Of a DNA stretch of 36,127 nucleotides, positions 5,419-36,127 are shown one piece after another (position 1 is the stretch's first letter; every line of letters begins with the position of its first letter). The DNA comes from Anaerolineae bacterium (GTDB taxonomy: Bacteria; Chloroflexota; Anaerolineae; DRVO01). Below the pieces are notes generated by a model, which did not search any database, was not told the origin of the DNA, and saw only the letters and a program-made list of their open reading frames with translations. The translations under genes were made by a program, and so were the position numbers. The stretch spans positions 1 to 36,127 of the forward strand of contig JAPWUW010000003.1 of NCBI GenBank assembly GCA_028275325.1, given 5' to 3'.

Positions 5419-6873
5419 CTACTCAGTGCCGAGAACCCATTTCCCGACGATGGCCATTCCAGGTGGGCCTGTCAGCTGGTCGAGCAGCATAGTAACATCT
5501 TGAGTATCGATTATCTTGAAGGCAAACTCCCGCTGCATCTCCCGCAGTACGATCCTGAGCCCCTGCTCCCCTACAAGCTCACCGAGCGCGAGCCAGAAAA
5601 GAGGCCCTTTTGAGCCAGCCAGCGCCTGCCAGCGGAGCAGGTTGCCATAGGCCGGCAACCGCTGGGCCAGCGGCCCATCGAGCCCGGTGCTGCGCGCGCG
5701 CTCAAACTCCTCGCGCCATGCCTGCGCTTGCGCCTCAGCCGGCCCCAGCCCCTCCACCGCGCGCCGGTAAAGGTGAGCGCACACCTGCCCCAAGGATTCC
5801 GCAAGCCATGGGTCCCGCAAGGGGTCAGTGCCGACCTTGTTGCCCCACCACTGCCAGGCCAGCAACGAGCTCACGGCGCGGCCGAGCTCTCCCCGCTGCT
5901 GCGTGAAGTAGCCCTGTGGGAGGAGCAAGGCTCCCGAAGCGTGAACGGTGGCCTCAACAAGCGGTACCTTCACCAACCAAAGCTGCGCCTGTGGGAAGGG
6001 CCCGAGCAGTTCCTCATAGAAAGCCATGCCCGCCTCAGCGTGGGCAAGCGCCGCGCTTGCAGTGGAGCGATCCGCCTCCGGAGCGGCAGCAAAGAGCCGC
6101 ACTCCCCCCACATCCCGCGCCTGCACCTCATAGCCGCTCGCTAAGACCAAAGCGAGGTTGCGGGCAGGCCCGGCCACGAAGCGCGAGATTTCTTGACCCT
6201 CGCGTTTCTCTTCGCCAATAGGCAACCCAAGGCCAAACGCCTGGAATCCAGGCGGCAGCGCAATCTCAACCTGGTAGAGGCTGGCTTCTGTGCAGGCAGC
6301 TTCCCCAAAACCAGGTGAGCTGTCCAGGTGCCACTCCCCGCCTTTTAGAGCGGCAAGCATCGGGTAGAAATCGGGCAGGACAGCTACGCCGTTGCTCTCG
6401 CCGAAAAACGCGTACTGGCCGAGAAGCTGTGGGTAGCCGAGGGCAAAATCCAGGGTCACGAGGGCAGCACCTCCTGGCGGCAACAGGCGCGGCAGAGGCA
6501 CCTTCAGGTCCACGCCCCTGCCCGTGGCGACAAACGGCACCTCTCGCCCGTCCACAGCGGCCCGCAGCACGCGCATGTTGCCGCCATAGGCGGGCATGTT
6601 GGGGTAAAGCCGGAAGTAAAGCTCCCGCAGTTCGCCTTCGGCGTTGTTGCGGTAGTACACTGTCAGGCGCCCAGCAAGCGTCCGCTCCTGTGGCCTGGCC
6701 ACGAGCGAGAGCTGATAGCGGGGAAGCAGAGCAATCTCCAGCCCTGCGAGCTCCTGGCCCGGCCGCAGCGCTAGTGAGTACACCTCCAAAGGGAGCTCCT
6801 GGGGTGCGCGGCCGCAGCTAGCAATGGCCAAAACCAGCACCAATGAGATAAAGAACGCACTCTTGCGGCGCAC
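5419..6873 (-). CDS. M1 (gluzincin) aminopeptidase homolog, lipoprotein, zinc motif degenerate
   Basis: Lipobox LAIASC, ELYFRLYPN N-domain, QWWG..VG.D....PWLAESL and SKGPLFW. HEXXH is replaced by SLLAW. GTG start at 6873 inferred from RBS and signal peptide. Confidence 0.82.
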   Translation of the reverse strand: MRRKSAFFISLVLVLAIASCGRAPQELPLEVYSLALRPGQELAGLEIALLPRYQLSLVARPQERTLAGRLTVYYRNNAEGELRELYFRLYPNMPAYGGNMRVLRAAVDGREVPFVATGRGVDLKVPLPRLLPPGGAALVTLDFALGYPQLLGQYAFFGESNGVAVLPDFYPMLAALKGGEWHLDSSPGFGEAACTEASLYQVEIALPPGFQAFGLGLPIGEEKREGQEISRFVAGPARNLALVLASGYEVQARDVGGVRLFAAAPEADRSTASAALAHAEAGMAFYEELLGPFPQAQLWLVKVPLVEATVHASGALLLPQGYFTQQRGELGRAVSSLLAWQWWGNKVGTDPLRDPWLAESLGQVCAHLYRRAVEGLGPAEAQAQAWREEFERARSTGLDGPLAQRLPAYGNLLRWQALAGSKGPLFWLALGELVGEQGLRIVLREMQREFAFKIIDTQDVTMLLDQLTGPPGMAIVGKWVLGTE

Positions 6874-6947
6874 AGCATCTGCCTCAGCCAGATCCTGTTT
6901 CGCGCCGGGGTATCCTTGTGAAATCCACGCCTTCGGCACTCACAGCC

Positions 6948-10290: not shown

Positions 10291-11418
10291 TCAGCCACCT
10301 GGAAGGATTGGCCGGCCCTGCAGCCAGCGGACAATGTCCAGGTACGAGACAACCAGCATTAGCGCGATGAGCGCCACCATCCCGATGAAGTGCACCAAGG
10401 CCTCTCGCTCTGGCGGCACGCGCCTGCCTCCGCGCAGCCACTCCGCGACAACAAACGCTATGCGCCCACCATCGAGAGCGGGCAGTGGCAACAGGTTGAG
10501 CAATGCGAAGTTCAGGCTGAGAAAGCCGGTGAAATCCAAGAACGGCAACCAACCGCTGCGCACGACCTCCCCGGTGAGCCGAGCAATCCCAACCGGCCCT
10601 GAGAGCGCACCCTCCGGCACTGGAGCAGCCCGCGTGAAGAGCGCCAGCACCATCTGGCCCAACCCCTGCGCCAAGGCCCCAATTAGGAGCAGCGCTCGCT
10701 CCACGCCGAGCCAGGCCGCCTTCAAAAGGCCGACCCTCTGTATGACCACCCCCTCTACCTCGCCAATCGTTATCGTCACCCCCATTGGACCCTGCCCGTG
10801 GGGGATCTCCTCTCTGGTGCGGGGCCGCACCTGCACACTCGCCCTCTTGCCTGCCCTCTCCACGACCACCGTCACTTCCCTGCCCAGGTTCTGGAGCGTC
10901 GCCTGCTGCACGGCGCTCAGGCTGCGCACTTCCACCTCGCCAATCGACAGCAAGACATCGCCTGGCTGCAAGCCTGCCAGCTCGGCAGGGGAGCCAGGAG
11001 CCACTCCCTCGACCACCACGGGCCCCACCGGCTCCGGGATGCCACTAGCAAAGAGAGCTCCGTAGAGCACAACCGCAACGACCAAGTTCATGGCGGGGCC
11101 GCTTGCAAAGACAAGAAAGCGTTGCCATCCTTTCTTGCTCACCAGGCTGCCTGGCTCGTTCGGCTCTCCACTCTCCCCCGCCAGGCGAACAAAACCGCCA
11201 AAGGGCAGCCAGTTCAGAGTGACCTTGACGCCACGGTGTTCAAAGAGCACGAGCAACCGCGGGGGATAACCGAGGCCAAATTCCTCCACCCGCACCCCCA
11301 CAAGCAGGGCCGCCAGGAAGTGCCCGAGCTCGTGGAAGAAGACGAGCACACTGAGCATGGGGATGACGGCAAGCCATTCCCATCCCGAAAGCCACTGCCA
11401 GCCCGCAGCCAAGCTCAC
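10291..11418 (-). CDS. rseP: RIP metalloprotease RseP (M50) with PDZ domain
   Basis: HELGH, FGLGYPP, LPFGGFVRL, SGPAMN, PDZ (GSPAELAGLQPGD), GPVGI and NLLPLPALDGG. GTG start after GGAGG. Confidence 0.92.
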   Translation of the reverse strand: MSLAAGWQWLSGWEWLAVIPMLSVLVFFHELGHFLAALLVGVRVEEFGLGYPPRLLVLFEHRGVKVTLNWLPFGGFVRLAGESGEPNEPGSLVSKKGWQRFLVFASGPAMNLVVAVVLYGALFASGIPEPVGPVVVEGVAPGSPAELAGLQPGDVLLSIGEVEVRSLSAVQQATLQNLGREVTVVVERAGKRASVQVRPRTREEIPHGQGPMGVTITIGEVEGVVIQRVGLLKAAWLGVERALLLIGALAQGLGQMVLALFTRAAPVPEGALSGPVGIARLTGEVVRSGWLPFLDFTGFLSLNFALLNLLPLPALDGGRIAFVVAEWLRGGRRVPPEREALVHFIGMVALIALMLVVSYLDIVRWLQGRPILPGG

Positions 11419-11650
11419 CACATGCCTCCAACGCTTACGCCGCCTGAATGTTAGAGCAAGGGTTATCCGCCAGCAACCCGGCCTCCACCGCGAGACATGG
11501 AATGCGCCACGATGTGTTCCCATAAGTCGCCTATTATGGAGAGGGTTTTGGGAACAAGAATTCACGCTTTGTTCACGCGCAAACCTCTACAGAAAACTGC
11601 CCTTTCTGCCGATACTTGGCACGGAATTGGGGATTCTCCCTCCAGGCGGC

Positions 11651-11690
11651 TTGACAAGGGGACAACGGGCAGCACATGCTTACTGTGCTG
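11651..11690 (+). promoter_or_regulatory. Putative promoter with overlapping inverted repeat upstream of the hybrid kinase gene
   Basis: Perfect TTGACA at 11651-11656; CAGCACA-N7-TGTGCTG at 11670-11690 covers the expected -10/+1 region. Confidence 0.5.
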
Positions 11691-11710
11691 GTCCCAGGGC
11701 AGGTGGAGTT

Positions 11711-14173
11711 TTGAGACGGGCAAGAGATAAGTTTCCCTCAGCGATCGCACGTCTGGCGTTGCGCTCGCTGCTCGTAGCGGCAATCCAGGTGGTGGTTCTC
11801 CTTACGCTCGCAGTATCCACGCCGCGGCTTCTGGAGGAGGCTGGCCGGCAGCTCCTCTCAGGGCACGCGCTGGCACTCAGCGCCCTGCTGGAGCAACGCG
11901 GGCATCTCCTGGCTCACCAGGCGCAACTGCTCGCCTCTGTAGCGGGCGAGCCACAAGCCATTTTGCATGCCGCGGAACGCCTACCAGGGGCAGAGGGCAA
12001 GATTGTCGCCGTTTTGCTGACACCAAAGGGCGACGTGTTAGCCGCTCGCCCTGAAGTCGGCCTCTTTGTGCAGCCGATTGGGCAGCTGCGCGTTGCGCTT
12101 GCCTCCCGGGCTGCGCCCGAGCAGTTCTATACCTTCTTGCATCAGGGCGAGCTCTATGTGGCCGGCGTGGCGCAGCTGCCTGCTCCAGAGGGCGGCTGGC
12201 TTGTCCTCCTGCAGGAGCACGGGGCCTACTTGAGCGAGCGCGCCAGCGAGCTCATGGGGGCACAGATCCTCCGGCTGGCGCAGGCCGAGCAAGTGCCACC
12301 GATATCGCTCGGGCTGGCCGAGCTGCGCGCCGGCTGGGCGCTGGTGCCTGTTCTGGCGCCTAGGCCTCTTGGCACCGCGGCCGTTGCCATCTGGATGCGG
12401 GTGCCCCTTGGGAATGTGGATGACCTCCTGGTGGCGGCTGTCGCTGTGTTTCTTGCAGGCTTCGTCCTCTTGCTTGGCGCGCAAGCGTTGCACGCCCTCA
12501 CGACATACTCCCAGTTCATGCGCCCCTTCTGGGCAACGCTTGCGGCCATGCGCAACTATGCGCAGAGCGGGCAGTGGCAGCCCCCGGCTGTGGCCTTTCG
12601 CGAGCACCAACAAGCCATAGCTGCCATGGGCGCAGCAATTGCTGCCAAGCAGCAAGCTGAGGAAGAGGCCAAGGCGCGCCTGGCTGAGCTCCAGGCGTGT
12701 ATTGATCACATGCCGGCCCAGGTCTTCATCAAGGACCTGAACCTGCGCTATAGGCTGGTCAACCAACGCTTCGCAGCCGCGTTGGGCCTGCCGCCGACTG
12801 ACATCATTGGCCGCACCGATGAAGGCCTTTACGCCGAGCCGCGGGCCCAGCAGGAAAAAGAGCTGGATCGGGCTTGCATCGAGCAACTGCGGCCGCTGGC
12901 AAGCGAAGAGGAGCTTGAAGAAAGAGAGGGGAGGCGGTACTTCCGGGTGCTCCGGGCCCCGATCATCGGCGCGGATGGAGAGCCGATCGGGATTGTGGGC
13001 CTGCGGCTCGACATTACAGAGCGCAGGCTCTTTGAACAGGCCCTGCTGGAGAGCGAGAGAAACCGCATCGCGGCGCGCATGGCAGGCGGCCTCGCGCACG
13101 TCTTCAACAACCTTCTTATGGCCATCCTGGGCTCAGTGGAGCTCGCGCAGCTGGAGCTGGAACGGGGCGAACCCGTGGACGCGGACCTGCAACAAATCCG
13201 CGCCGCCGCTGAGAAGGGCGCCGAGATCAGCCAGCAGCTCCTGTTGCTCGCTGGCCATAGGCCTGGCCCCCGCCGGCCAACGGACCTGAACCAGTTGCTT
13301 CTGGACCTTGTCCCGACCTTGAATGGGCTCCTTGGCCCCAGCATCAGGCTGGAGACGCATCTTGGGCGAGATCTGCCGCCCGTCCTTGTGGATCGGCCTG
13401 CCTTGAGCCAGGCCATAATGCAATTTGCCCTGCGCGCAAAGGAGGCCATGCCAGAAGGCGGCACGTTTTTCCTTTCCACCGGGCTTGGCATGCCGCCCGC
13501 CCGCGCTCAGGTTGGCCAGCCACTGCTCGCGCATGGCCCGGCGGTCTGGCTTTCGTTGCGCGATACGGGTAGCCCAATCCCAGCTGAGCTGCGCCCGTTC
13601 GTATTTGAGCCCTTTGTCGATCTGCAGGCGCGCGAGTACCGCGTGGGTTTGAGCCTGGCCGTGGCCTACGGTATCGTCCGCCAGCACGGTGGCGCTGTGG
13701 TCCTTGAGGAGGAGAAGGGAGGCGGAAACTGCTTCACCATCTATCTCCCGGTGGCCGAAAACCGCGAGGAGCATGGAGGTGCCAGGGTGGCCAGCCCAAC
13801 ATCAAGGACAGCCGGCGCAAGGATCATTCTCGTCGTTGACGATGAGCCAACGGTGCGCAGCCTTGCCGTGCGCATGCTCACCGCTCTCGGCTATGAGGTC
13901 TGGAGCGCCGCGAGCGGCAAGGAGGCTCTGGAGCTCATTGCGCAGAAGGGCCACGGGCCCGACCTTATCATTGCGGACGTCCTGATGCCGGGAATGAGCG
14001 GCACAGAGCTCGTGCGCCGCGTGCAGCAAAGGTACCCGGGCTGCAAGGGGCTGCTTATGTCCGGCTTTGCGGGGGAACTGGAAGCGGATCAGGCTGCAGG
14101 CTTGCCAGTCCTGTGGAAGCCTTTCACGATGCAGGCGCTTGCCGCCGCCATCCGCCAGGCCCTCGGCAGTTAG
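11711..14173 (+). CDS. Membrane hybrid sensor histidine kinase homolog (TM-sensor-TM, PAS, HisKA, degenerate HATPase, REC)
   Basis: PAS (VFIKDLNLRYRLVN..IIGRTD..DITERR), H-box AGGLAHVFNNLL and REC (VVDDE, ADVLMPGMSG, KPF). Start inferred at TTG 11711; the upstream part of the track ORF overlaps rseP and the promoter. Confidence 0.88.
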   Translation: MRRARDKFPSAIARLALRSLLVAAIQVVVLLTLAVSTPRLLEEAGRQLLSGHALALSALLEQRGHLLAHQAQLLASVAGEPQAILHAAERLPGAEGKIVAVLLTPKGDVLAARPEVGLFVQPIGQLRVALASRAAPEQFYTFLHQGELYVAGVAQLPAPEGGWLVLLQEHGAYLSERASELMGAQILRLAQAEQVPPISLGLAELRAGWALVPVLAPRPLGTAAVAIWMRVPLGNVDDLLVAAVAVFLAGFVLLLGAQALHALTTYSQFMRPFWATLAAMRNYAQSGQWQPPAVAFREHQQAIAAMGAAIAAKQQAEEEAKARLAELQACIDHMPAQVFIKDLNLRYRLVNQRFAAALGLPPTDIIGRTDEGLYAEPRAQQEKELDRACIEQLRPLASEEELEEREGRRYFRVLRAPIIGADGEPIGIVGLRLDITERRLFEQALLESERNRIAARMAGGLAHVFNNLLMAILGSVELAQLELERGEPVDADLQQIRAAAEKGAEISQQLLLLAGHRPGPRRPTDLNQLLLDLVPTLNGLLGPSIRLETHLGRDLPPVLVDRPALSQAIMQFALRAKEAMPEGGTFFLSTGLGMPPARAQVGQPLLAHGPAVWLSLRDTGSPIPAELRPFVFEPFVDLQAREYRVGLSLAVAYGIVRQHGGAVVLEEEKGGGNCFTIYLPVAENREEHGGARVASPTSRTAGARIILVVDDEPTVRSLAVRMLTALGYEVWSAASGKEALELIAQKGHGPDLIIADVLMPGMSGTELVRRVQQRYPGCKGLLMSGFAGELEADQAAGLPVLWKPFTMQALAAAIRQALGS

Positions 14174-15017: not shown

Positions 15018-15458
15018 ATGAAGGAGATCACGTCGGAGGTTGAGGTCAGGGCATCCGCGGAGAAAGTCTGGCAATTATTGACGGATTTCCGAAGCTACCG
15101 CAACTGGAACCCCTTTATCCCGCGCGTGGAGGGCATCGCCAAGACCGACGCGCGCATTTCCGTGCAGACGCAGCCTCCTGGTGGGCGCGCCCTTTCGTAC
15201 CGAGCCATTGTCGTGCGCGTGGTCAAACCCAAGGAGCTGCGCTGGGTGGGAAGGCTGTACGGCATTCCAGGGCTGTGCAACTGTAGCTTTTCCTTCACCA
15301 TCGAGCCCCTGGATGGGGAGCGCGTCAAGGTAGTGCAAAAACAAAGCTACAGTGGCCTGCTCGTGCCGCTGTTAGGGCGGATGCTGGGGGCTGGCGTGCA
15401 GCGCGGCCTGGAGCAGATGAATCAGGCCTTGAAGGAGCGTGCCGAGGCCGCTTCCTAA
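15018..15458 (+). CDS. SRPBCC (START/polyketide cyclase-like) domain protein
   Basis: ASAEKVWQLLTDFRSYRNWNPFI...ELRWVG...MNQALKERAE; AGGAGG RBS before ATG 15018. Confidence 0.88.
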   Translation: MKEITSEVEVRASAEKVWQLLTDFRSYRNWNPFIPRVEGIAKTDARISVQTQPPGGRALSYRAIVVRVVKPKELRWVGRLYGIPGLCNCSFSFTIEPLDGERVKVVQKQSYSGLLVPLLGRMLGAGVQRGLEQMNQALKERAEAAS

Positions 15459-16486
15459 GTTGCACTTCGCTCAAGCAGCCTGGACACAAGTGTGCTGACA
15501 ACATGCGGTGGGCGCGGGGCGAGGAAGTATGGCCCCCGCACACCGCCCCCAAGCAGCAGTACAAATCCGCCGGGGCGGGGCGTAGCCTGGGGTGTAGGTT
15601 CGCTCTCCATGGCAAAGCCCACACCGGGCGGTGCCAGGATTCGCCTGCCGAAGGGCGGCAGGGGAGCACGCCCGAGTTCGCACCCGGCTGGCAACTTGTC
15701 CAAGGCCAAAGGCACATCCTCCGTCAGGCAAAGCGTCGCCCCGGCACAACAGATCTCAGCAGCAGCGATCCCTAGCGCAGCGGGGTTCAGCCAGTTCTCC
15801 ACCGGCATGACGGTGGCGGTACTGGCCATAACGACCGCGGCCGAGCTGAGATCCAATTGCTCCAAGAGCCAGCTGAGGGCGGCGGCAAGCTCGTCCAGGG
15901 CCTGCTCCCAGCGCCGCAGAGCCCCGGACGAGCCAAGAGCTGGCGCCACAAGCTCTGGGTTGCCAAGCTGCCAGTTCAGGAACCACTGTGAGCAGATCAG
16001 GGTGCTCTCCTCCGCGCCGGATAGGCTAAGAGCCCTCTTTGCGAGGGCACGCACAACCGCGCCCACAGCTTCAGAACCCATCCCCGGCAGCCAATCGAGG
16101 TTCAGCCAGTCCGCAACCTCCTGACCTTCTCCTGCAGGTGCAACTGCTGGGCTGCCCTGAGGCAAGGCCCTGGCCAGGATCGCTGCGGCCTCCTCCGGTG
16201 TCCAGATGACTCCACGAGGGCCACTCAAACCCTCCACCAGCACTCCCCACGAGAGGAGCCGTCGCCAGCCACTGGAACGCCCGCTTGCCATGATCAGAAC
16301 GTCGCTTGCGCTCAGGCCCGGAAGCAGCAAGAGCACAACGCGCCGCTCCTTGCGGTGCACCGCTGGGATGGACACAGGTGCCCCGCTGCCGCGCCGCGCC
16401 GTGCACCCAGCCAACAGGCAGCACGCTGCCAGAAGAGCTCGCCTACGCCTGTCGCACTGACAGGAGTGCCTCTCTGAGTTGCTCAA
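15455..16486 (-). CDS. Alkaline phosphatase/nucleotide pyrophosphatase superfamily homolog, lipoprotein, metal ligands degenerate
   Basis: RRRRALLAACCLLAGC lipobox. RRVVLLLLPGL (cf. VVLISLDG), LLEQLDLSSAAVVMASTAT (cf. T.VIVTSDHG) and GFVLLLGGGV...VSTLVSRLL C-terminal pattern. Start uncertain (TTG 16486 chosen). Confidence 0.6.
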   Translation of the reverse strand: MSNSERHSCQCDRRRRALLAACCLLAGCTARRGSGAPVSIPAVHRKERRVVLLLLPGLSASDVLIMASGRSSGWRRLLSWGVLVEGLSGPRGVIWTPEEAAAILARALPQGSPAVAPAGEGQEVADWLNLDWLPGMGSEAVGAVVRALAKRALSLSGAEESTLICSQWFLNWQLGNPELVAPALGSSGALRRWEQALDELAAALSWLLEQLDLSSAAVVMASTATVMPVENWLNPAALGIAAAEICCAGATLCLTEDVPLALDKLPAGCELGRAPLPPFGRRILAPPGVGFAMESEPTPQATPRPGGFVLLLGGGVRGPYFLAPRPPHVVSTLVSRLLERSAT

Positions 16487-17258
16487 GCAACTGCCTGTGG
16501 ATGCTCGCATTGGCAGCAAGGCTGGGGCCATTGCCCAGAACCCACGGCTGCCCATCAAACCCGGTGATGAGGCCACCGGCCTCACGCAAGATCAGTACAC
16601 CAGCAGCCGCATCCCAAATGGCAAGGTTCGGGTGCAAGTAGCAATCCATCCTGCCGCAGGCGATATAGCTGAGCGCCAGCGCCGCCGATCCAAGAGAGCG
16701 CACGCAGCTGCAAAGAGGAGCCACCCTGGCGGCAAGCTGCAGGAACTCACCCATTTCGCCCGAGCTGTACGAAAGCCCCACCCCGAAGACAACCTCCTCC
16801 AATCCACGCAGGCATGGTGCCTCAATGCGGGCGCCGTTCAAATAAGCGCCGTTGCCCAGGACACCGGTGAAGAGCTCGTGGCGCACCGGGTCATACACGG
16901 CGCCGGCCAATGGCTCATCTCCAGCGCAGAAAGCAACTGACACGGCAAAAAAGGGCAGCCCATGATAGTAGTTGGTGGTGCCATCGATCGGGTCCACCAC
17001 CCACCTGAGTTCCCCCATGGATCCAGGGAAGGTACCCTCCTCTGAAACTATTTCATAGCCTGGAAACGCCCTGGATATCTCCTCACACACGGCCTGCTGT
17101 GCGGCGAGATCTCCATCCGTGACGAGATCCCTCGGCGCACTCTTCTCGCTCTTGCCCAGCCGTGGCCGCCAGGCGCGCAGCGCTGCCTGCCCACCGGCTA
17201 TCGCCGCCACCACCGCCGTGTGCGCGGCGCGAAAAAGCAAATCCCTTGGGAATTCCAT
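16443..17258 (-). CDS. suhB: Inositol monophosphatase family protein (SuhB-like)
   Basis: DLVTDGD, SEE, WVVDPIDGTTNY, RSLGSAAL and WDAAAG; GGAGG RBS. Confidence 0.9.
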   Translation of the reverse strand: MEFPRDLLFRAAHTAVVAAIAGGQAALRAWRPRLGKSEKSAPRDLVTDGDLAAQQAVCEEISRAFPGYEIVSEEGTFPGSMGELRWVVDPIDGTTNYYHGLPFFAVSVAFCAGDEPLAGAVYDPVRHELFTGVLGNGAYLNGARIEAPCLRGLEEVVFGVGLSYSSGEMGEFLQLAARVAPLCSCVRSLGSAALALSYIACGRMDCYLHPNLAIWDAAAGVLILREAGGLITGFDGQPWVLGNGPSLAANASIHRQLLEQLREALLSVRQA

Positions 17259-17353
17259 CTGCCCTCCATGCCAAAAAGTGCAGCTGCAGCTCATTTTCGC
17301 AGAGCTCCAGCCGCAGCGCCAGCCTGACCCCGCGCACCAGAGCCAGCCACGCC

Positions 17354-18710: not shown

Positions 18711-18748
18711 GGTGCCCTCGCCTCACGGCGCGCCATGCAGTGGCAGGC

Positions 18749-24525: not shown

Positions 24526-24534
24526 GCTAAAATG
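24526..24534 (+). promoter_or_regulatory. Extended -10 element for yjbQ/radical SAM operon (a divergent TATAAT lies at 24543-24538 on minus)
   Basis: TGCTAAAAT matches TGnTAnnnT in an AT-rich patch between divergent genes. Confidence 0.45.
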
Positions 24535-24558
24535 AAAATTATAGGCAGAGGAGCAGCA

Positions 24559-26816: not shown

Positions 26817-26821
26817 AAAAG

Positions 26822-27475
26822 GTGAAGGGCCATTTGTATGAAGTGACGTGGGCGCGTGGGCCAGCCATAAAGTACATCTCGCACTTGGACTTGATGCGCA
26901 CCTGGGAGAGGATGCTGCGCCGTGCCCGGCTGCCACTGCTCTACACCCAGGGCTTCAACCCCCGTCCACGCCTTTCCTTCGCAGCTGCTCTACCCGTTGG
27001 CATTCTCGCTGAAGCAGAGCTCGCCTTCTTCGCCCTGCGCGAGGACGTGGATCCACAGCGCGCGCTGGCAGCACTGCGGCAGCAGGCGGTCACTGGCCTT
27101 TGCGTGCGAGCGCTGCGCTCCCTCCCCGCAAACACAAACCCGCCCCAAGCGAGGGCTGCCCTGTACCTTGTGCGTCCCTCGAAAGAAGGCTTGCCCGCGG
27201 ATCTGGCAGAGCGCGTACATGCTCTGCTGGCACAGGAAAAGCTCTTGTCCGCCAGGCGCACGCGAGAGGGCGCTGAACAGCTGCTTGACCTGCGCCCCCT
27301 GATCGAGGAATTGCACCTGACAGAATGCCCGCCGCCCTCTCTCCACATGCAGCTTAGCCTCCGCCCAGGCGCTACCGCCAGGCCGGAGCAGGTCCTTGAG
27401 TTGCTCGGCCTGGATCCTTATGAGGCTGAAATCACCAGGCTTCGCCTAATCTTGGTCGGCCCAGTGGCGTCCTGA
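26822..27475 (+). CDS. TIGR03936/DUF2344 radical SAM-associated protein
   Basis: YISHLDLMR.WER.LRRA.LP..YTQGFNPRPRLSFAAALPVG; adjacent to its usual partner. Confidence 0.9.
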   Translation: MKGHLYEVTWARGPAIKYISHLDLMRTWERMLRRARLPLLYTQGFNPRPRLSFAAALPVGILAEAELAFFALREDVDPQRALAALRQQAVTGLCVRALRSLPANTNPPQARAALYLVRPSKEGLPADLAERVHALLAQEKLLSARRTREGAEQLLDLRPLIEELHLTECPPPSLHMQLSLRPGATARPEQVLELLGLDPYEAEITRLRLILVGPVAS

Positions 27476-28822
27476 TGGCTCGTCAACGAACGCGCTAATT
27501 GCCAGCAAGCTCAGGAAGAACCCGAAGTAGTTCTCATTGCAGAAGCGCGAGAGAAAGGAATAGGCACCAAAGAGCACGGCACAGCCGAACATCATTTGCT
27601 GCAATGTGTTATCCCGCCACTGCCTCCGCACAGTGCCAATGAGCAGAGGCAAGCACACAATGAGTTGCGGTATCCAGAAGGGGAAATAGGCTTGCTTGTC
27701 GGGCACAAGGCTCAACGCAAGCACCAGGTTGCTCAGGCCCCAGCCCCGAATCTGGTACGATGAGGGGGAGGTGCCCGCGCTCCATGCCCAGACATCGTCG
27801 AAGATCGCTCCCGGATCCCAAAGCACGAAGGGCAAAAGGATTACCACAAGGCAAGCAAGCGCCGGCCAAAACCGAGCGAGCACTACTCGCAGCCGCTGTC
27901 CTCCTCGCAACGCGTCTCCGGCCAGGTACGCTATGTAGTACGGCAACAGGAACCAGGCTGTGCTCTTGCTTGCCCATGCGAGTGCAAAGGCCAGCGATCC
28001 TAGAGCTGGGTGCCCCCTGCGCAGGCAGAACAGCCCAAGCACAAGAAGCGAGAGTATCAGCACATCGTTCATGCCAAAGATGACATCGCTGCCCATTATC
28101 GGGTTCAGGCCCAGGATGGCTGTGAGAAGCAAGGCCTGCCCGCGCCTGCTGCTCAGGGAAGGCACGAGCGCGAGCATGAGCGCATAGCAAGCAAGGTAGA
28201 GCAGGCGCTGGTCGTACCAGCCCAGCACCTTCTCGGCCATGGCCATCACGGGAGCGCTCAGCAAGAAGGTAAACGGTAGGTACGGATAGTGGTAGACTGC
28301 TGTGCGCAACTCCAAGCCCCACTCGGCCAGCGGTGTATTGCTGTAGTCTTCCCGGTAGGGGTTGAGCCCCCGCCGGAAAAGCTTCGCTGCCTCCTCCGTC
28401 TGGATCACGCCCCCATCGTGGGCAAAGGAAGCAGGACCTGTGAGGTGCCGCAGGCCAACAAGGTAAAGGGATTGCGCAGCAACGGTAACGGCGCAGATAG
28501 CGAGGATCAGCCCGAGCTTGAGCCGATAGGTCGCCACCTCTGGAAGACGCATTCTGAGTGCGTCAACGACGAGATAAAGGGCACTCAGCGCGAAGGCGGC
28601 AGTTATCGTGAGCAGGCTTATCGGGTCAGTGAGCCAGTTGCGCATCAGCGCCCAGGCGGAATCCGAAAGCAGCCGCCCCAAAACAGGCAATCGGCGGATC
28701 GTTTCCTCCGGCCGGGGCGCCACAAGATCGGCCAGTGTGTCGATCCGCACGCGGGCAATGAGCAAGGCCACGAGCAGCAAAGCATCAAACGACACTGGCG
28801 GCTGGTGGTTCGCCTTGGACAC
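27446..28822 (-). CDS. GT-C fold membrane glycosyltransferase (GT87/DUF2029-like)
   Basis: Many TM helices; HDG..QTEEA...GLNPY, YPYLP, GMNDV and WASKSTAW. Confidence 0.72.
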   Translation of the reverse strand: MSKANHQPPVSFDALLLVALLIARVRIDTLADLVAPRPEETIRRLPVLGRLLSDSAWALMRNWLTDPISLLTITAAFALSALYLVVDALRMRLPEVATYRLKLGLILAICAVTVAAQSLYLVGLRHLTGPASFAHDGGVIQTEEAAKLFRRGLNPYREDYSNTPLAEWGLELRTAVYHYPYLPFTFLLSAPVMAMAEKVLGWYDQRLLYLACYALMLALVPSLSSRRGQALLLTAILGLNPIMGSDVIFGMNDVLILSLLVLGLFCLRRGHPALGSLAFALAWASKSTAWFLLPYYIAYLAGDALRGGQRLRVVLARFWPALACLVVILLPFVLWDPGAIFDDVWAWSAGTSPSSYQIRGWGLSNLVLALSLVPDKQAYFPFWIPQLIVCLPLLIGTVRRQWRDNTLQQMMFGCAVLFGAYSFLSRFCNENYFGFFLSLLAISAFVDEPSGRHWADQD

Positions 28823-28826
28823 GGCC

Positions 28827-30305
28827 TCAATCCCAAAAAATGCGGCGCGGCTCGCTTGCCAGGCTCGTCTCAATGACCTTGCCAGTGACCGGATCGTCGC
28901 GCACAACGACAACCAACCAAGTGTACTCTCCCGAGCCACGCGGGGGCCCATTCAGGCGGTAGCGCGTCTCGGTGGAGCGCGCGATTCCCCAAGGGGGCTC
29001 CCCGGGTTTCCACATGCGGATGTCAAAGGATTCTCCCGGCTCGAGTGGTAGATCGTACTGCCAAACCAGCTCCACCGCTGCACCAGGGGGGAAACGAGTT
29101 ACATCCGCAGGCTCAAGGAGCCTTGGCGCCGGGTGCAAGGGCCGCGTCTCCGGTGTGGGCGTTGGCGGCAGGGCAATGGCCGTGGGGCTCTGACGGAGCG
29201 GCGGTGTCGAAGCTGGCTTCGGAGGGGTGGGAGTTGCTTGACCTGTCGGCGCAAGGCTCAGCGTCTCGGCTGGCTTGGGCGTCCAGATCGTCACAGGCGT
29301 TGAGAGAGCGGCCAGGAATTCAGCCGTCGCCGTGCGCGGGTCGGGTTGTGGCGTGGGCTTCTGGCTTGTACCTAGCCAGAACACCCCGCCAAGCATGCCG
29401 GCAAGCACCAGGCCGAAGCCGAATAGCTTTACTGCGCGGGGGGCGCGCGCAGCCCCCCTGAAAAAACCGCGCGCAACCTCGAGCACCGCATGTTGCAGCC
29501 GGGCACGGGCAGGCTCCGACTCATTCATCCTTTCGACAAAAGTGAGCGCGCTCTGAAAACGGTCTCCCGGTTCCTTGGCCAAGGAGCGCAAAAGCGCGCG
29601 AGCCGCATCCCGCCCAATGGCCTGGCGCAGGTGACGTGGCACCTCCGGAAGCAGGACTGCATGCGCGCGCCGCCACTCGTCTGCACTCTGCGCCTCGAAC
29701 GGAAGCCGGCCGCACAGCATCTCAAACGCGATGAGCCCCAGCGAGTATACATCGCACCATGGCCCCACTGGCTGCCCACTCGCCAGCTCCGGGCTCGCAT
29801 ATCGCTCGTCGGCAACAGTTGCCTTCTGGCCCCGTCGGCGGGCGTACCCGAGCCCGCAAAGGAAAACCTCCCCATCGCCGGAAAGGAGCACATGCTCTGG
29901 CGTGAGCGCACAGTGCACAAAGCCACGGGCGTGCAGTTGGTCGAGCCCTGCGGCCACACCCCTCAGCACAGCCAGCGCCTGTGCCCTCGGCAGAGGGCCC
30001 TCTGCCAGCAGCTCCCGAAGCGACCGCTCCACCCAGGCGGCAACCGCATACACGCGCCCATCGCTGCTCTGAGCCACTCGCCATGTCGGCCGCAAAGCCG
30101 TCAGGGACAGCGATTCGGCAATCTCTTTCTCGCGCCGCAGGTGCACAAGGGTGGCAGCCGATCCCTTTCGCGCGATCTTGAGCACGACTGGCTGACCCGT
30201 GCCAGCCATCGCCTGATAGACCTCAAACTTCTCCCCGCGCGCGATCAGCCGCAGCACCCTGTACTCATCAAAGGCCCGCAATGCCAGCGCCTCCATCAGC
30301 CGCAT
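28827..30305 (-). CDS. Membrane Ser/Thr (Hanks-type) kinase homolog, probable pseudokinase, with Pro/Thr linker and extracellular beta domain
   Basis: VVLK, YASPE, DVYSLGLIAFEMLCGRLPF and LAKEPGDRF, then TM, TPTP linker and a C-terminal domain. HRD and DFG are missing. Confidence 0.85.
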   Translation of the reverse strand: MRLMEALALRAFDEYRVLRLIARGEKFEVYQAMAGTGQPVVLKIARKGSAATLVHLRREKEIAESLSLTALRPTWRVAQSSDGRVYAVAAWVERSLRELLAEGPLPRAQALAVLRGVAAGLDQLHARGFVHCALTPEHVLLSGDGEVFLCGLGYARRRGQKATVADERYASPELASGQPVGPWCDVYSLGLIAFEMLCGRLPFEAQSADEWRRAHAVLLPEVPRHLRQAIGRDAARALLRSLAKEPGDRFQSALTFVERMNESEPARARLQHAVLEVARGFFRGAARAPRAVKLFGFGLVLAGMLGGVFWLGTSQKPTPQPDPRTATAEFLAALSTPVTIWTPKPAETLSLAPTGQATPTPPKPASTPPLRQSPTAIALPPTPTPETRPLHPAPRLLEPADVTRFPPGAAVELVWQYDLPLEPGESFDIRMWKPGEPPWGIARSTETRYRLNGPPRGSGEYTWLVVVVRDDPVTGKVIETSLASEPRRIFWD

Positions 30306-30335
30306 TTGCTCGCCAACGCGGTGGGCGACACCGCC

Positions 30336-30647: not shown

Positions 30648-30650
30648 AGC

Positions 30651-31313: not shown

Positions 31314-31353
31314 AACCCCCAGTTGGAACTACGCCCCTCTGCTTCCTGAGACA

Positions 31354-32076
31354 TCACCTTCGCCTGCCTACAGGCACGACGTAAAGGGGCCTCTCGTCCT
31401 TCGGCAATGCGAGCACTCTACCGACCTCCTCATCGTCAAAGGCCCCCACCGGGACGCCGCCCAAGCCAAGCGCCACCGCCTGTAAAAGCAGGTTCTGGGC
31501 CGCATGGCCCACCTCCATGTGGACATAGCGTTCAGCACGCCGGCCATACCGCTGCGCTGTCCGCTCTAACACAGCAGCGAACACAAAGACAGCAGGCGCC
31601 TCCCGCACCCAGGGCTGGTTGAGGCATGCCCGCGCCAGGGCGATGCGCAAGTCATCAGAACTGACTTGCTCAAGTTCGTGCGCACCAGGGCGGTAGTGGT
31701 ACAGCCCCTGCGCAGTCAGCAAATAGGTTTCCAGAGGGTAAGTCGCGCCAGCTGATGGTGCAGTGCGAAAGCCACGGCTGTCCGTCACGCCCTGCGCCGC
31801 CCACAGCAACTGGCCAATCTCCTCCAAGGTGAGAACCCCAATGCCGTACTCCCGGACCGACCGCCGCCTGGCCAAAACCTCAGCCAGGCCAGCGCCGCCA
31901 GAGACCTGCGGCAGGGGCAGCTTGACGACTTTAATCTCCTGCGGCAGCTCGCCTTCTCGGGCCACTGTCCCCTCCTCCCTCACCGACTTTTGCCGAGAGA
32001 AGCAGCCACTCAGCCAGCCTCCGCACACCCAAGCGAAGGACGAAAGCACCGCTCGACGTGCAAACTGGCGCTTCAC
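31354..32076 (-). CDS. SagB/ThcOx-type nitroreductase-family dehydrogenase with putative Tat/lipoprotein leader
   Basis: RRSVREY, LLWAAQG, RTAPSAGATYPLE, EVGHAAQN and GAFDD; leader ARRAVL...WLSGC. Confidence 0.88.
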   Translation of the reverse strand: MKRQFARRAVLSSFAWVCGGWLSGCFSRQKSVREEGTVAREGELPQEIKVVKLPLPQVSGGAGLAEVLARRRSVREYGIGVLTLEEIGQLLWAAQGVTDSRGFRTAPSAGATYPLETYLLTAQGLYHYRPGAHELEQVSSDDLRIALARACLNQPWVREAPAVFVFAAVLERTAQRYGRRAERYVHMEVGHAAQNLLLQAVALGLGGVPVGAFDDEEVGRVLALPKDERPLYVVPVGRRR

Positions 32077-32107
32077 TGAGCTGTGTACCCCTCGGGCGAG
32101 TCCGCAT

Positions 32108-32926
32108 TCACTCAGGCTGGCACGACGGGCAGTAATACGTCGGCCGACCAGCGACCTTCACCTTGACGATCCGCGTGCCGCAGCGCTCGCATGGCTGCCC
32201 CTCTCTTTCTTTCACCCGGAAGTGCTCCTGATATTGGCCCTTGCGCCCATCCAGGTGGACAAAAGCCATCTCTGAAGAGCCTCCGTAAGCAATCGCCTCT
32301 TCCATGACGGTGCGCACCGCCGACGCGAGCCTCGCAAGCTCCTCAGAGCTAAGAGAAGAAGCCGGCCGACGTGGATTTATCCGAGCCAGGTACAGCGCCT
32401 CATCCGCATACGTGTTGCCAATGCCGCCAACCGCCTCCTGCTCGAGCAACACGGCTTTGATCGCCGCATTTCGTCTGCCAACGACCCTTTCAAGCTGTTC
32501 CGCGCTCAAGCCCTCCAGCAGTGGATCCGGGCCGAGCTTGGCGACTTCTTCCTGGGTGGCCACTTCCTCGCTGCGCAGAAGCCGCTGATGCTGCAAAGCC
32601 GTTCCGGAAAGGTATAGGCGGCTGCCATCGCTGAAGACCAAGGTCAAGCGTGGCTCGGGCGGAGGCTCACTTGTGAGCGCCGAATACCGCCATTGCCCCA
32701 CGAGCATGAGATGCGTGAGCAGCGAAAGCCCGTTGCTGAAATCAAGGGAGATCCTCTTGCCGAAACGCCTAACGCCAACCACGCGCTGACCCACGAGCTG
32801 ACCAAGCAGCTCGTGGCCAACCCCCAACCGCTGACCGGCAAAGGCTTCCACATGGCTCACTTCCTTGCCCACAACGTGCTGGCGCAGCTGCCGCGCCAGA
32901 ATCTCCACTTCAGGCAGCTCAGGCAC
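32108..32926 (-). CDS. Fpg/Nei family DNA glycosylase/AP lyase (MutM-like)
   Basis: PELPEVE, GK, LGPDPL, H2TH GIGNTYADEAL and zinc finger CERC...RPTYYCPSCQ. Confidence 0.9.
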   Translation of the reverse strand: MPELPEVEILARQLRQHVVGKEVSHVEAFAGQRLGVGHELLGQLVGQRVVGVRRFGKRISLDFSNGLSLLTHLMLVGQWRYSALTSEPPPEPRLTLVFSDGSRLYLSGTALQHQRLLRSEEVATQEEVAKLGPDPLLEGLSAEQLERVVGRRNAAIKAVLLEQEAVGGIGNTYADEALYLARINPRRPASSLSSEELARLASAVRTVMEEAIAYGGSSEMAFVHLDGRKGQYQEHFRVKEREGQPCERCGTRIVKVKVAGRPTYYCPSCQPE

Positions 32927-32943
32927 GAAGACCGCCCCCTTTC

Positions 32944-34020
32944 TCAGGCATAAATGGCCGAGCGCAACAGCTCGTCCTCAAGCTGGTAAAACCACTGCAG
33001 AGGCAGGACCCGCATGCGCAGGCCGACGTACCCGCTCGCGCGCTCACGCGCGTAATAGGTCAGCACCACCTCCCCATTCACGAAAGTAATGCTGGGGTAC
33101 GAGTAGTCGTAATCCGGATTGGCCTCCAAAGTGCGAAAGCGGCACCAGCGCTGTCCATCTGGCGATACAGCCGCGCGCAAAGGGCAGCGAAGGCCACCAT
33201 GAGGCATGCCGCGGTCGTAATTGTCGTTCCATACGAGAAGGAGATCCCCCCTGCCTGGCATTCGCCTCAGCGCGCAAGGCGCCTCCGGAGAGACGAGCTC
33301 GACAAGCTCTGGAGCTGCCCACGTCTCACCCCCATCGGTGGAGCGAGAGCGGTAGATGCGGCCCAGCTGCGAGCGCACAAGCATGACAAGAGAGCCATCA
33401 CCTAGCTCGGCCACTGCCGGCTCCATCGCTCCCCTCCGAGGCAGATCCACCCAAGATGAAGCCAGGCGCCACGAGCGCCCTTCATCGTCGGAGAGGAAGC
33501 AGCTACTCCGATAGTGCCCAGAGCCAACCTCCGGCCCCCGAGCATCCTCGCAGCGAGAGAAAGGCACAATGAGCCGGCCTGAGCTCAAGCGGCTTGCCCG
33601 GCTGTTGGCCACCACGTAGTAACCTGGCTCGGCATCGAGGGGGCTAGCGCCCAACCATGTCCGCCCCCCATCACTGGACCTCTTGACCCACACCTGGCAA
33701 TCCGTCGTCGAATTCTTGCGAAGGTAGAAAAGCAAGAGCTCACCGCTTTCCAGCACGAGCAACGAAGCTGACATGCAGTTGAGCGCAGCGTCGTTTTCCT
33801 GTAGCACCTCGTCATCCGTCCAGGTCCTGCCACGATCAGCCGAACGGCGCCCAACGATGGATGCTGGCTCGTCGTCTCTCAACCCCTCAAAGCGCGTGTA
33901 CGCGAGCAGCAGCGAGCCATCGGGCAGCACTGCTACGTCGGCCTCACTGTTCCGCGGGTACCGGCTGCTGGCTGCACAAAGCAAAGCTTCTATGCCTGCC
34001 ATACCGTTCATCTCCAACAT
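32944..34020 (-). CDS. Asp-box (BNR) sialidase-like glycoside hydrolase
   Basis: Asp boxes SADRGRTW, SSDGGRTW, SDDEGRSW, STDGGETW and SPDGQRW; RNSE, MEP and YSYP motifs. Confidence 0.85.
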   Translation of the reverse strand: MLEMNGMAGIEALLCAASSRYPRNSEADVAVLPDGSLLLAYTRFEGLRDDEPASIVGRRSADRGRTWTDDEVLQENDAALNCMSASLLVLESGELLLFYLRKNSTTDCQVWVKRSSDGGRTWLGASPLDAEPGYYVVANSRASRLSSGRLIVPFSRCEDARGPEVGSGHYRSSCFLSDDEGRSWRLASSWVDLPRRGAMEPAVAELGDGSLVMLVRSQLGRIYRSRSTDGGETWAAPELVELVSPEAPCALRRMPGRGDLLLVWNDNYDRGMPHGGLRCPLRAAVSPDGQRWCRFRTLEANPDYDYSYPSITFVNGEVVLTYYARERASGYVGLRMRVLPLQWFYQLEDELLRSAIYA

Positions 34021-34034
34021 GCAGGATATTCAGC

Positions 34035-36127
34035 CTAAAGCAGGTCAAGCGGGTCCACGTCAACCCGCCAACCTGCTGCAAGCGGTACGGACATGAGCAA
34101 TTGGCTGGCGCCTTCCCCGCGCAGAATGATGTGCCAACGGCTGCGGCCACGCAAGCGGGCGTAATAGCACGGGCTTGGCCCAATGATCTCCACGTCAGCC
34201 ACCTCGCCCTCAAGAATTGCTCTGTGCAGACGCCAGGCAAGCCTTCTCGCCGCGCTCTCGCAGATCTGTTCCGATTCATGCAAGAAAAGCAGCCGGATCA
34301 GCGGGCGCTCAGGTGGGTAACCCACGCGCCGGCGCCATTCCAGCTCACGGTCAGCGAAGTGCTCGTAGCCTTTCTGGAGGGCGTGGAGCGCGTAGTGCTC
34401 AGGGTGAAACGTCTGCACCAGCATCCGCCCTCCCCCCGAGCGAACCCGGCCAAGCAAATGGACGAGCAGCTGAAAAGTGCGTTCACTCGCCCGGTAATCG
34501 GGCAGCGATAGCATCGTATCAGGAAGCACGGCGGCCGCAAGCGTCACCTGGGGCAACGCCGGCTCAGTGGCAACAAGCTGAGTCCCTACGAGAACCTGCG
34601 CCTCGCCACGCGCGAACTCGCCCAGAACCTCATCCTTCCCATGAGAGCGGCGCTGCACATCACTATCCCATCGCAGCACCCGAACCCCGGGGAAGGCAGC
34701 CTGCACCTCCGCCTGCAGCCTTTGGGTACCCTTACCGCGCAAGCGTATGGCGCTGCTCCCGCAGAGTGGGCAGGAATCGGGCATCGGCTCCTCGTGCCGG
34801 CAACTGTGGCAGAGCAGCTTTTCCGTTCGACCACCTTCCTCTGCCTTCAGCGCATGCCCGACAAGCGCAAGGTCACAACGCGGGCAGCGCCAGACGAACC
34901 CACAAGCCGAGCAAACCACGAGCGTAGCCCTTCCGCGCCGGTTGAGGAGCAGGATTGCCTGTTGGTCATGACCCAACACCTGCTCGAGCGCGTCCCGGAG
35001 CTGCCGGCTCAAGAGGCCCGTGTTGCCTGCGCGTACTTCCTCGCGCATGTCAACAAGTTGCACAAGGTGCCCCGGCCAACTCTCGCCGCCCCAGCGCCCG
35101 GCGCGCAGCCGAGGCAAACACTGCAGCTCTCCCGCCTTGGCGCGACCGTACGTTCCCACATCGGGACACGCACTGGCAAGCACCACCACTGCCCCAAGCT
35201 GCGCAGCACGCCTGATTGCCACTTCCCTTGTGTGGTAGTGCGGCGATGCCGCCTGCTTGTAGGATACGTCCTCTTCCTCGTGCACGATGATCAGCCCAAG
35301 GCGTGACACCGGTGCAAAGAGCGCAAGGCGCGTCCCTATGACCACATCGGCCTTTCCCGCGCGCAGCCTCTCCCACTCCGCACACCGCTGGGCCTCCCCA
35401 AGCCCGCTGTGCTGCACAGCTAACCTGCCCGGGAAATGCTCACGGAGGCTCTGGACCAGTTGCTGCGTGAGGCTTATTTCCGGCACCAGGAGCACGGCGC
35501 GCCGGCCCGATGCAAGTGCCTCAGCAACCAGATGGACATACACCGGCAAGGCATTCGCCCCCGGGGCAAGCGGCAGCAGAAACCGCCCACCATCCCCCGC
35601 CCTGAGCGCGCGCACAATGGGCTGCACCACCGCCTTGTCCTCTGGCTCAAGTTCCGCGAGAGCCCCTGCAGTACAGCCCACTGACTCCACAACCCCGGCG
35701 CCGGCATCTGCAGCCGCCACCGCTCCCACCCTTATCAGCTCAGCGATGACCTGCCTGCCCGCGCCACAAACCTTCCTCAGCTCATGCTCGCAGAGTGGCT
35801 GACCGCTGTCATGGAGAGTGCGAAGCGCCCGGGCGGCAGCGTGCAGCCGGCGGGGCAGCGCCAGCTCATATGCGCGCTCCACAGGCACTGTCAGTGTCAC
35901 CATCGGGGGCACCCTGCTTTCCCTGGCCAACCCCTTTGACTTGAGCTCCGCAGCGGCTTCAGCGCTGAAGCCCTCCTGCTCAAGCTGTGAAAAGTATGCT
36001 TCCCCCAACGCCTGCAGCCGGCCAAGCAGCGCCGCTGCCTGGGCAGACAAGCCAGTGCCTGGCACCTCGCCATGAGCCGGCCGCAGGACCACCTCCTCCG
36101 GCAGCAGCTGCACAACGCCCGAAGACA
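34035..36127 (-). CDS. priA: Primosomal protein N' (PriA), 5'-truncated by window, helicase motifs degenerate
   Basis: LVPEISLT, HSGL, VIGTR.ALF, SYKQ...YH.RE, LLLNRRG, four CxxC, PDYRASERTF, YPP and VDVDP. The frame is open to the window edge. Confidence 0.92.
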   Translation of the reverse strand, partial: SSGVVQLLPEEVVLRPAHGEVPGTGLSAQAAALLGRLQALGEAYFSQLEQEGFSAEAAAELKSKGLARESRVPPMVTLTVPVERAYELALPRRLHAAARALRTLHDSGQPLCEHELRKVCGAGRQVIAELIRVGAVAAADAGAGVVESVGCTAGALAELEPEDKAVVQPIVRALRAGDGGRFLLPLAPGANALPVYVHLVAEALASGRRAVLLVPEISLTQQLVQSLREHFPGRLAVQHSGLGEAQRCAEWERLRAGKADVVIGTRLALFAPVSRLGLIIVHEEEDVSYKQAASPHYHTREVAIRRAAQLGAVVVLASACPDVGTYGRAKAGELQCLPRLRAGRWGGESWPGHLVQLVDMREEVRAGNTGLLSRQLRDALEQVLGHDQQAILLLNRRGRATLVVCSACGFVWRCPRCDLALVGHALKAEEGGRTEKLLCHSCRHEEPMPDSCPLCGSSAIRLRGKGTQRLQAEVQAAFPGVRVLRWDSDVQRRSHGKDEVLGEFARGEAQVLVGTQLVATEPALPQVTLAAAVLPDTMLSLPDYRASERTFQLLVHLLGRVRSGGGRMLVQTFHPEHYALHALQKGYEHFADRELEWRRRVGYPPERPLIRLLFLHESEQICESAARRLAWRLHRAILEGEVADVEIIGPSPCYYARLRGRSRWHIILRGEGASQLLMSVPLAAGWRVDVDPLDLL

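Follow-up and report, generated by a model that had tools for sequence, protein, structure and literature searches.

The window, by which we mean the whole stretch of 36,127 nucleotides that was analysed, is contig C12 of a metagenome bin (G000; 3.09 Mb in 444 contigs, ~80% complete), the genome of a hot-spring member of the Anaerolineae (Chloroflexota). Its ~28 genes are mostly housekeeping according to the open reading frame (ORF) listing and Pfam (FtsK, S1, HAD, CoaE, RseP, MBL, SuhB, UvdE, FabH, radical SAM, GT87, aldolase, Fpg, BNR, and PriA among them). Within 31 kb of this stretch lie five enzyme homologs without their catalytic residues: an M1-peptidase-like lipoprotein, a hybrid histidine kinase, a lipoprotein of the predicted NPP/alkaline-phosphatase fold, a transmembrane (TM) Hanks-type pseudokinase, and PriA. 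An earlier sequence-only reading of this DNA had reported these five, and the open frames are indeed present, with the named catalytic residues missing in each; their coordinates are collected in the table. Orthologs of each protein were searched in relatives and then aligned. Six of the relatives (G001–G006), recorded as Anaerolineae bacterium metagenome-assembled genomes, belong to the same family of four genera as the source genome G000, and stretches with this PriA occur in hot-spring, microbial-mat, and sediment metagenomes; no RNA data set was listed among the sources of the PriA stretch.

Table. Positions in the window of the five genes, of their motifs or motif remnants, and of the adjacent glycosyltransferase gene.
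Feature	Position	Strand	Remarks
M1-peptidase-like lipoprotein (putative pseudopeptidase)	5419..6939	-	Lipobox LAIASC 6814-6831; SLLAW 5854-5868; LAESLG 5788-5805
Hybrid sensor histidine kinase with dead ATP lid (TM-PAS-DHp-CA-REC)	11357..14173	+	Probable true start TTG 11711
Hybrid kinase motifs	AHVFNN 13094-13111; N-box FALRAKEAM 13424-13450; G1 RDTGSPI 13559-13579	+	Alignment to CckA 5idj
Hybrid kinase motifs, continued	F box 13604-13627; G2 13640-13660; receiver Asp 13967-13993	+	Alignment
Predicted NPP/alkaline-phosphatase-fold lipoprotein without metal ligands	15455..16585	-	Probable start ATG 16510; lipobox LLAGC 16403-16417
NPP-like ligand remnants	LLLLPGLSAS 16304-16333; MASTATV 15809-15829	-	Replace the xxLDGxxxx strand and VSDHGM, respectively
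GT87-family membrane glycosyltransferase gene	27446..28951	-	PF09594; directly downstream of the pseudokinase
Transmembrane Hanks-type pseudokinase	28827..30305	-	Gly loop remnant 30219-30245; beta3 Lys 30174-30188; HCALTPEH 29892-29915
Hanks pseudokinase, continued	GLG for DFG 29841-29858; TM helix 29370-29426	-	Extracytoplasmic C-terminal domain
PriA (putative pseudohelicase), C-terminal 696 of 955 codons	34035-36127	-	Cut by the window end; rest on contig C296
PriA motifs	Walker A remnant LAPGANAL 35547-35570; Walker B remnant VHEEED 35268-35285; motif III ASACP 35163-35177	-	Alignment
PriA motifs, continued	Cys-rich zinc region 34755-34913; motif V 34551-34586; motif VI 34431-34460	-	Alignment

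PriA aligns over ~490 residues to E. coli-type PriA structures (E 2.8e-81) and passes TIGR00595 with 432.8 bits against a cut-off of 230.35. Motifs I, II, III, V, and VI of the helicase are nevertheless altered: GVTGSGKT reads LAPGANAL, DEEH reads HEEE, GSATP reads ASACP, GTQMxAKGLDLP of motif V reads GTQLVATEPALP, and QVAGRAGR of motif VI reads HLLGRVRS. The four CxxC pairs (CSAC, CPRC, CHSC, CPLC), which hold the eight zinc Cys, are all kept, PF18074 (the C-terminal domain) is matched, and the 3′-end-binding domain PF17764 is kept according to precomputed annotation. Within priA, the window end (36001-36127) and positions 15273-15399 of contig C296 share 127 nt at 100% identity: C12 and C296 adjoin in the genome, and the assembly was interrupted in this gene. 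Walker A is intact in all 19 relatives (6 of the family, 13 of the class), and DEEH is present in 18, with DEEQ in the remaining one; judged from these sequences, the loss of the helicase motifs (P-loop, DEEH, III, V, and VI) is confined to this species. No second PriA was found in the ~80% complete G000.

Motor-competent orthologs are 45–50% identical to the window PriA. No relatives between ~45% and ~98% identity occurred among 7999 scored candidates, and a metagenome scan returned only two near-identical PriA loci among 70. The ratio of the distance from G000 to its relatives to the distance among relatives of different genera is 1.87 for PriA, the highest of the 11 window genes compared (1.08–1.58 for the others). 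Raw identity to G004 was tried as a mark of an outlier and rejected: PriA lies at the 32nd percentile of 812 unfiltered pairs, and its outlier status therefore rests only on the comparison with inter-genus distances. Among columns invariant in the other relatives, G000 keeps a fraction of 0.66 in PriA, compared with 0.93 in G001 and 0.91 in G002; the corresponding gap for the ten other window genes ranges from -0.01 to 0.13. Of 175 columns near-invariant in the 19 relatives, G000 keeps 121 (69%), and eight relatives examined by leave-one-out keep 94–100%. By region, 2 of 10 such residues are kept in motif I, 7 of 7 in Ia, 4 of 6 in II, 3 of 5 in III, 16 of 21 in the zinc region (all Cys included), 15 of 22 in motifs IV–V, 9 of 13 in VI, and 18 of 22 at the C-terminus. 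On these counts, the relaxation of PriA centres on the nucleotide pocket without being confined to it.

The question arises whether such a PriA is still maintained, or is a young pseudogene whose frame happens to be unbroken, with replication restart carried out by something else or dispensable. The poor retention of near-invariant residues and the fastest evolution among the 11 genes speak for a pseudogene. The population evidence points the other way. A 13-member PriA cluster at 90% identity was drawn from JGI, ENA, NCBI, and Logan assemblies, of which 10 members were fetched (the other three are two short fragments and the window's own piece), and none of the 10 has a break in its 955 codons, the dead motifs being identical in each. 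The independent metagenome contig L155 likewise reads through all 955 codons and differs from G000 by 6 synonymous and 6 nonsynonymous changes (pN/pS 0.36, binomial p=0.069). In four further runs, each from a different study, contigs match all 30 bins of 16128-36127 at ≥93% identity; among the 40 listed of their 188 differences, PriA has 6 synonymous and 3 nonsynonymous ones (binomial against neutrality p=0.013), the other genes have 15 and 13 (PriA against the others, Fisher p=0.70), and none of the 40 falls in a motif codon. No indel within PriA was reported in these four runs. Together with the intact zinc Cys and motif Ia, these data make a pseudogene improbable, and PriA is probably still under purifying selection.

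In the M1-peptidase-like lipoprotein, SLLAW sits at the position of HEXXH, and the upstream GxEYPG segment (the exopeptidase motif of GxMEN type) is also gone. The protein scores 17 bits on PF01433, below the gathering cut-off of 27.7, so its membership in the family is established only via intact relatives: it matches intact Anaerolineae proteins at E 6e-70, through which it is homologous to the M1 catalytic domains, and intact homologs score 75.6 and 69.8 bits. HEXXH is absent in all seven family genomes (G000–G006, four genera) and present in 13 of 13 class-level homologs. No other PF01433 match was found in G000, at its ~80% completeness. Metallopeptidase pseudoenzymes are already a known kind according to a review, which also lists yeast Tma108 as an M1 non-enzyme that retains HExxH (PMC11266112). 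In comparison, the window's protein lacks both His and the catalytic Glu, and is a bacterial lipoprotein of ~480 aa.

The lipobox-bearing ORF that matches the description of an alkaline phosphatase (AP)/NPP homolog in the sequence-only reading was harder to place. It had no Pfam or PDB sequence match; Pfam scans of five members of its family returned nothing relevant, a profile search of PDB sequences with the family gave a chance match only (E 0.29), and a search of the ESM Atlas gave no usable match. A profile from five family members, searched against 1.84 billion protein representatives, recovered 13 family representatives at E ≤ 1e-10 and nine remote matches at E 1.3e-8 to 3.2e-4, all nine carrying PF01663. 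A first structural model from the five-sequence alignment was unusable (pLDDT 45.4); with the remote matches added to the alignment, the pLDDT was 78.5, and the best PDB matches of the model were the Xanthomonas (Xac) NPP and the ENPP family (Foldseek E 5.6e-10, TM-score ~0.5). Membership in the AP/NPP group, for which profile and fold searches were needed, thus appears right on the strength of the remote PF01663 matches and the top folds, with the caveat that NPP sequences stood in the model's alignment.

In that alignment, intact NPP relatives read LDGA, DPTLT, IDEAGH, and SDHGM. The window's protein has LPGL for LDGA and STAT for SDHG, and its family reads [LV]PGL and S-T-[CGA]-x at these ligand motifs. 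None of the nine aligned members has the Asp of the first ligand position or the His of the DH pair, and the Asp of that pair is absent in eight. The protein would share its fold with the Xanthomonas NPP and ENPP phosphodiesterases (PDB 2gsn, 7mw8; PF01663) and has a 'RQPGY ... LD..L.RLL ... DLS..V.LVS' core in common with one PF01663 subfamily, but LDGA, IDEAGH, and SDHGM are replaced, it is lipid-anchored, it has no Pfam match of its own, and it is shorter (~350 aa vs. 500–640 for the nearest NPP relatives). Among the 'RQPGY' proteins of PF01663 (P0151, P0152, P0155, P0156, P0158), several members of 616–635 aa are degenerate at LDGA and/or SDHG too, so catalytic loss seems to be recurrent in this subfamily. 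With this query, the gene was found only within the family (G001, G002, G005, and G006) and not in G003 or G004, and only two partial PF01663 matches occur elsewhere in the ~80% complete G000. A literature search on AP-superfamily pseudoenzyme lipoproteins listed no paper on the window's protein among its best matches. Another ORF, of the sulfatase family (20702-22072, minus strand; PF00884, 129 bits), was considered as the AP/NPP homolog and rejected: it lacks a signal peptide, and both Asp9 and DHG are present. There, T-I-P-V-R (21890-21904) replaces the C/S-x-P-x-R formylglycine site, and no ortholog was found in the fetched DNA of G004 (best match 26% identity). By its sequence, this ORF would be either a Thr-nucleophile member of the AP superfamily or a sixth pseudoenzyme.

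The Hanks-type protein matches PknB (PF00069, 89.6 bits vs. a gathering score of 31.7) and reads HCALTPEH for HRDxKxxN (HRD to HCA, Lys to Thr, Asn to His) and GLG for DFG, with the Gly loop lost. DFG and the catalytic-loop Lys and Asn are lost in all seven family genomes, whereas nine of nine class-level kinases are intact; the HRD position reads HCD in two of the family genomes, HCN in four, and HCA in G000. The extracytoplasmic C-terminal domain that follows the TM helix is conserved. The pseudokinase is confined to few Anaerolineae genomes, and in G000 and all six family relatives it lies on the same strand as the GT87 gene, overlapping it or at most 30 nt apart. This is the sole conserved operon-like pairing in the window, and the two genes are probably operon partners. 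A second Hanks-type protein of G000 (contig C54:4273-8415, L250), with a kinase domain and TPR repeats in a 1381-aa frame, has HGG for HRD and keeps DFG and the beta3 Lys; overall, the catalytic Asp is missing in two of the four Hanks-type ORFs of this genome, the window gene and the C54 kinase-TPR protein.

Seven bacterial Ser/Thr pseudokinase families, including ActPs1-3, GLW, CP1, DYD, and DLHK, are described by O'Boyle et al. (2025, PMC12599244), and a review puts the share of bacterial proteomes that harbour pseudokinases at ~6% (PMC10211241). The window pseudokinase resembles these families in being conserved as a family and differs in its pairing with a GT87 gene. Of the seven, it was compared with GLW alone and does not fit that family: GLW members carry GLW at the HRD position and Leu or Trp for the beta3 Lys (PMC12599244), whereas the window pseudokinase and its orthologs read HC[NDA] there, and the beta3 Lys is kept.

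In the alignment of the hybrid kinase to CckA (PDB 5idj), the His and the H+4 Asn are kept, H+1 Asp is replaced by Val and the N-box Asn by Arg, and the remaining boxes read DTGSP (G1), FVDLQ (F), and GLSL (G2, within RVGLSL). HATPase_c matches the protein at profile positions 36-110 only. The receiver is complete (PF00072, 68.8 bits), with DDE, the D in IIADVLMPG, the S in LMSGF, and the K in WKPF. The H+1 acid is absent in six of six family orthologs (Thr or Ile in the five relatives). Only G000 has lost the N, G1, F, and G2 boxes, which the five relatives all keep. Read from this distribution, the decay is a two-step one, first of the H+1 acid family-wide and then of the ATP-lid boxes in G000. 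Since the H+1 acid is missing, autophosphorylation is probably impaired in the whole orthologous group. The window kinase has the A-H-x-F-N-N DHp motif, the CA domain, and the C-terminal receiver of the CckA-type hybrid kinases, and differs from them in the losses just described. A kinase-core hidden Markov model search of G000 gave 43 histidine-kinase-like ORFs. Of the 41 that can be read at the N-box, 40 have its Asn, and of the 31 that can be read at H+1, 30 have Asp or Glu; the window gene is the sole exception in both counts. An intact paralog lies on contig C21. Degenerate histidine kinases are a known kind, with DivL and EspC as examples of non-phosphorylating homologs; unlike DivL, the window kinase keeps the His and has lost the ATP lid.

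One or more of the five proteins might not be dead, through relocated residues or a different reaction. The Hanks pseudokinase keeps the beta3 Lys, the alphaC Glu, and SPE at the APE motif, so that nucleotide binding or an atypical activity is conceivable; a review mentions pseudokinases with other transferase activities (PMC10211241). The hybrid kinase keeps the His, the H+4 Asn, and the receiver Asp, the M1-like protein retains the third-ligand Glu in LAESLG, and a Thr or Ser near the nucleophile position is kept in most members of the NPP-like family, the placement of the Thr being ambiguous by one column. Nonetheless, residues unfit for the same chemistry stand in for the zinc His pair of the M1-like protein, three metal-ligand positions of the NPP-like one, both catalytic Asp of the kinase fold, and, in PriA, all of the P-loop. 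We regard a surviving activity of this sort as unlikely.

Still less support was found for a lineage under generally relaxed selection, or prone to mutation, that loses catalytic sites genome-wide. Two losses (PriA and the kinase ATP lid) are indeed specific to G000, and this genome is somewhat further from its relatives than they are from each other in 11 of 11 genes (ratios 1.08–1.87). To look at the genome more widely, 1.26 Mb of G004 (~40% of its genome) was compared with all G000 ORFs by reciprocal best hits, which gave 868 pairs, 812 passing coverage and 547 remaining after the removal of antisense shadows. Among the 547, the Walker A string was shared in 39 pairs, present in G004 only in 6, and in G000 only in 3; the same counts were 5, 4, and 3 for HExxH, 10, 0, and 1 for CxxxCxxC, and 5, 0, and 0 for HxHxDH. 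Motif losses are symmetric on these counts. Moreover, five of the six G004-only Walker strings are not P-loops (an oxidoreductase, a sulfatase, RpoC, a glycosidase-like protein, and the untranslated lead of an ABC-transporter gene whose real P-loop is shared), and since these five are chance occurrences, PriA is the only true P-loop loss among 40.

The window itself gives the same picture. FtsK, RseP, FabH, SuhB, the radical SAM enzyme, Fpg, and MBL keep their motifs, as does CoaE with GNIATGKS, in agreement with what had been claimed for the set from FtsK to SuhB and the radical SAM enzyme, and in ten neighbouring genes the retention of family-invariant residues is close to that in G001 and G002. 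Only one of the 43 kinase-like ORFs is degraded, and nonsynonymous changes are not enriched among the population variants. There is no genome-wide erosion in the tests that were run, and an erosion of this kind is improbable. With three of the losses older than the family, the suggestion that this lineage converts enzymes unusually often is not supported. Nor is the alternative of relaxed paralogs: the ~80% complete G000 yielded no intact counterpart of the M1-like protein, no second PriA, and only two partial PF01663 matches. The claim that selection, and not noise, keeps these pseudoenzymes fared better, as orthologs across genera are 44–54% identical with the same losses and the PriA variants are mostly synonymous.

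A joint function of the five genes, as an island of envelope pseudoenzymes, is very improbable despite the lipobox or TM segments in four of the five and their closeness within 31 kb. The genes are spread over both strands and separated by housekeeping genes, PriA is cytoplasmic, and the losses are of different ages. The window is syntenic, in inverted orientation, with contig 3 of G004, where PriA, the Hanks protein, the kinase, and the M1-like protein follow in the same order over ~28 kb and PriA is intact; the NPP-like gene, where relatives have it, lies outside the contigs that were fetched for the syntenic block. The caution of the sequence-only reading, which saw no single system here, was well placed. 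Sequencing or assembly errors, conceivable for a fragmented bin of 444 contigs, can be practically dismissed, because the same PriA sequence is found in JGI, ENA, NCBI, and Logan cluster members, so that the bases of PriA are confirmed by independent assemblies, and none of the 40 differences shown from the four further runs touches a motif codon.

Overall, the window most plausibly contains five pseudoenzymes that arose independently and differ in age, set among otherwise ordinary housekeeping genes in synteny with relatives, and we hold this reading with good though not full confidence. Several points weigh against it, besides the retained residues of the kinases and of the NPP-like family. 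The genome-wide control covers four simple motifs, two protein families, and ~40% of one relative, and what is missing of the genome could contain another, intact gene for PriA, M1, or NPP. The NPP proteins in the model alignment may draw the predicted fold toward NPP. The PriA polymorphism counts are small (12 and 9 sites), from partly overlapping sources, and stem from a subset of variants. Moreover, 54 of the 175 near-invariant PriA residues are lost, ~31 of them outside the helicase motifs, and part of the protein may be decaying.

To the observed motif states, phylogenetic distribution, open frames, conservation, and polymorphism pattern, we add biochemical roles that, for all five proteins, we infer from sequence. 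The M1-like and NPP-fold lipoproteins and the Hanks pseudokinase would have lost catalysis before the genera of the family split and have been conserved since. The M1-like protein may have become a peptide-binding protein of the envelope that uses its former peptide pocket, and the NPP-like one a phosphoester-binding protein of the envelope with its former phosphoester pocket. The pseudokinase would be a receptor-like membrane protein, probably controlling the adjacent GT87 glycosyltransferase. Since its His, H+4 Asn, and receiver are intact and the ATP lid is gone, the hybrid kinase may serve as a phosphate acceptor, a sink, or a phosphatase for another kinase, for which the C21 paralog is a candidate partner. 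PriA, with its 3′-end-binding domain, motif Ia, zinc module, and C-terminal domain, would recognise stalled forks and recruit the replicative helicase without unwinding.

By its sequence and by analogy, PriA is most likely a pseudohelicase like that of Deinococcus. The study by Lopper, Boone and Morrow (2015, PMC4504706) reports that D. radiodurans PriA has no ATPase or helicase activity and binds forks and DnaB. The PriA of Deinococcus (Deinococcus-Thermus) is also a true ortholog with poor Walker A and B, with the DNA-binding parts and the Cys-rich region kept and the gene maintained. The change there is phylum-wide and comparatively mild (Lys of GKT to Arg, PMC4504706), whereas in G000, as known here from sequence, the P-loop is replaced in full, degradation extends to motifs III, V, and VI, and a single species is affected. 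No paper on the window's PriA was among the best matches listed in a literature search on Walker A loss in Chloroflexi PriA and on replication restart. We lean, by a modest margin, toward the view that this species was caught just after the loss of the PriA motor, with the ATP site gone, the examined relatives keeping it, and purifying selection persisting.

Apart from the main subjects, the HAD-family protein at 4678-5412 (plus strand) reads D-W-W-G-T, with Trp for the second Asp of DxD, in G000 and in the four relatives with the N-terminus covered; in this respect it presumably resembles dehalogenase-type HADs rather than phosphatases. Among the further runs, a single additional C follows position 32934, between the Fpg and BNR frames, in one contig from X3. 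Run X6 has contigs that leave out 208 and 167 nt (19914-20123 and 28224-28392), with only 20–23 nt on the shorter side; these skips are probably strain variants or mis-joins.

Each of the five proteins belongs to a known kind, and as a cluster they are nothing out of the ordinary. The dating is what proved useful here, with three losses family-wide, one two-step, and one species-specific; it shows that 'dead' enzymes can come to lie this densely by chance, with no process that acts on the whole lineage. The predicted NPP-fold lipoproteins form a family for which Pfam holds no model and whose members an annotation would call hypothetical. Only the loss of the PriA motor is unusual among the five. 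It offers a natural pair, motor-dead in G000 and motor-intact in near relatives with the same gene order. If the motor was indeed lost recently under continuing selection, a comparison with the motor-competent orthologs would reveal which of its parts PriA must retain to restart replication without helicase activity, and what other changes in the cell accompany the loss of its motor.

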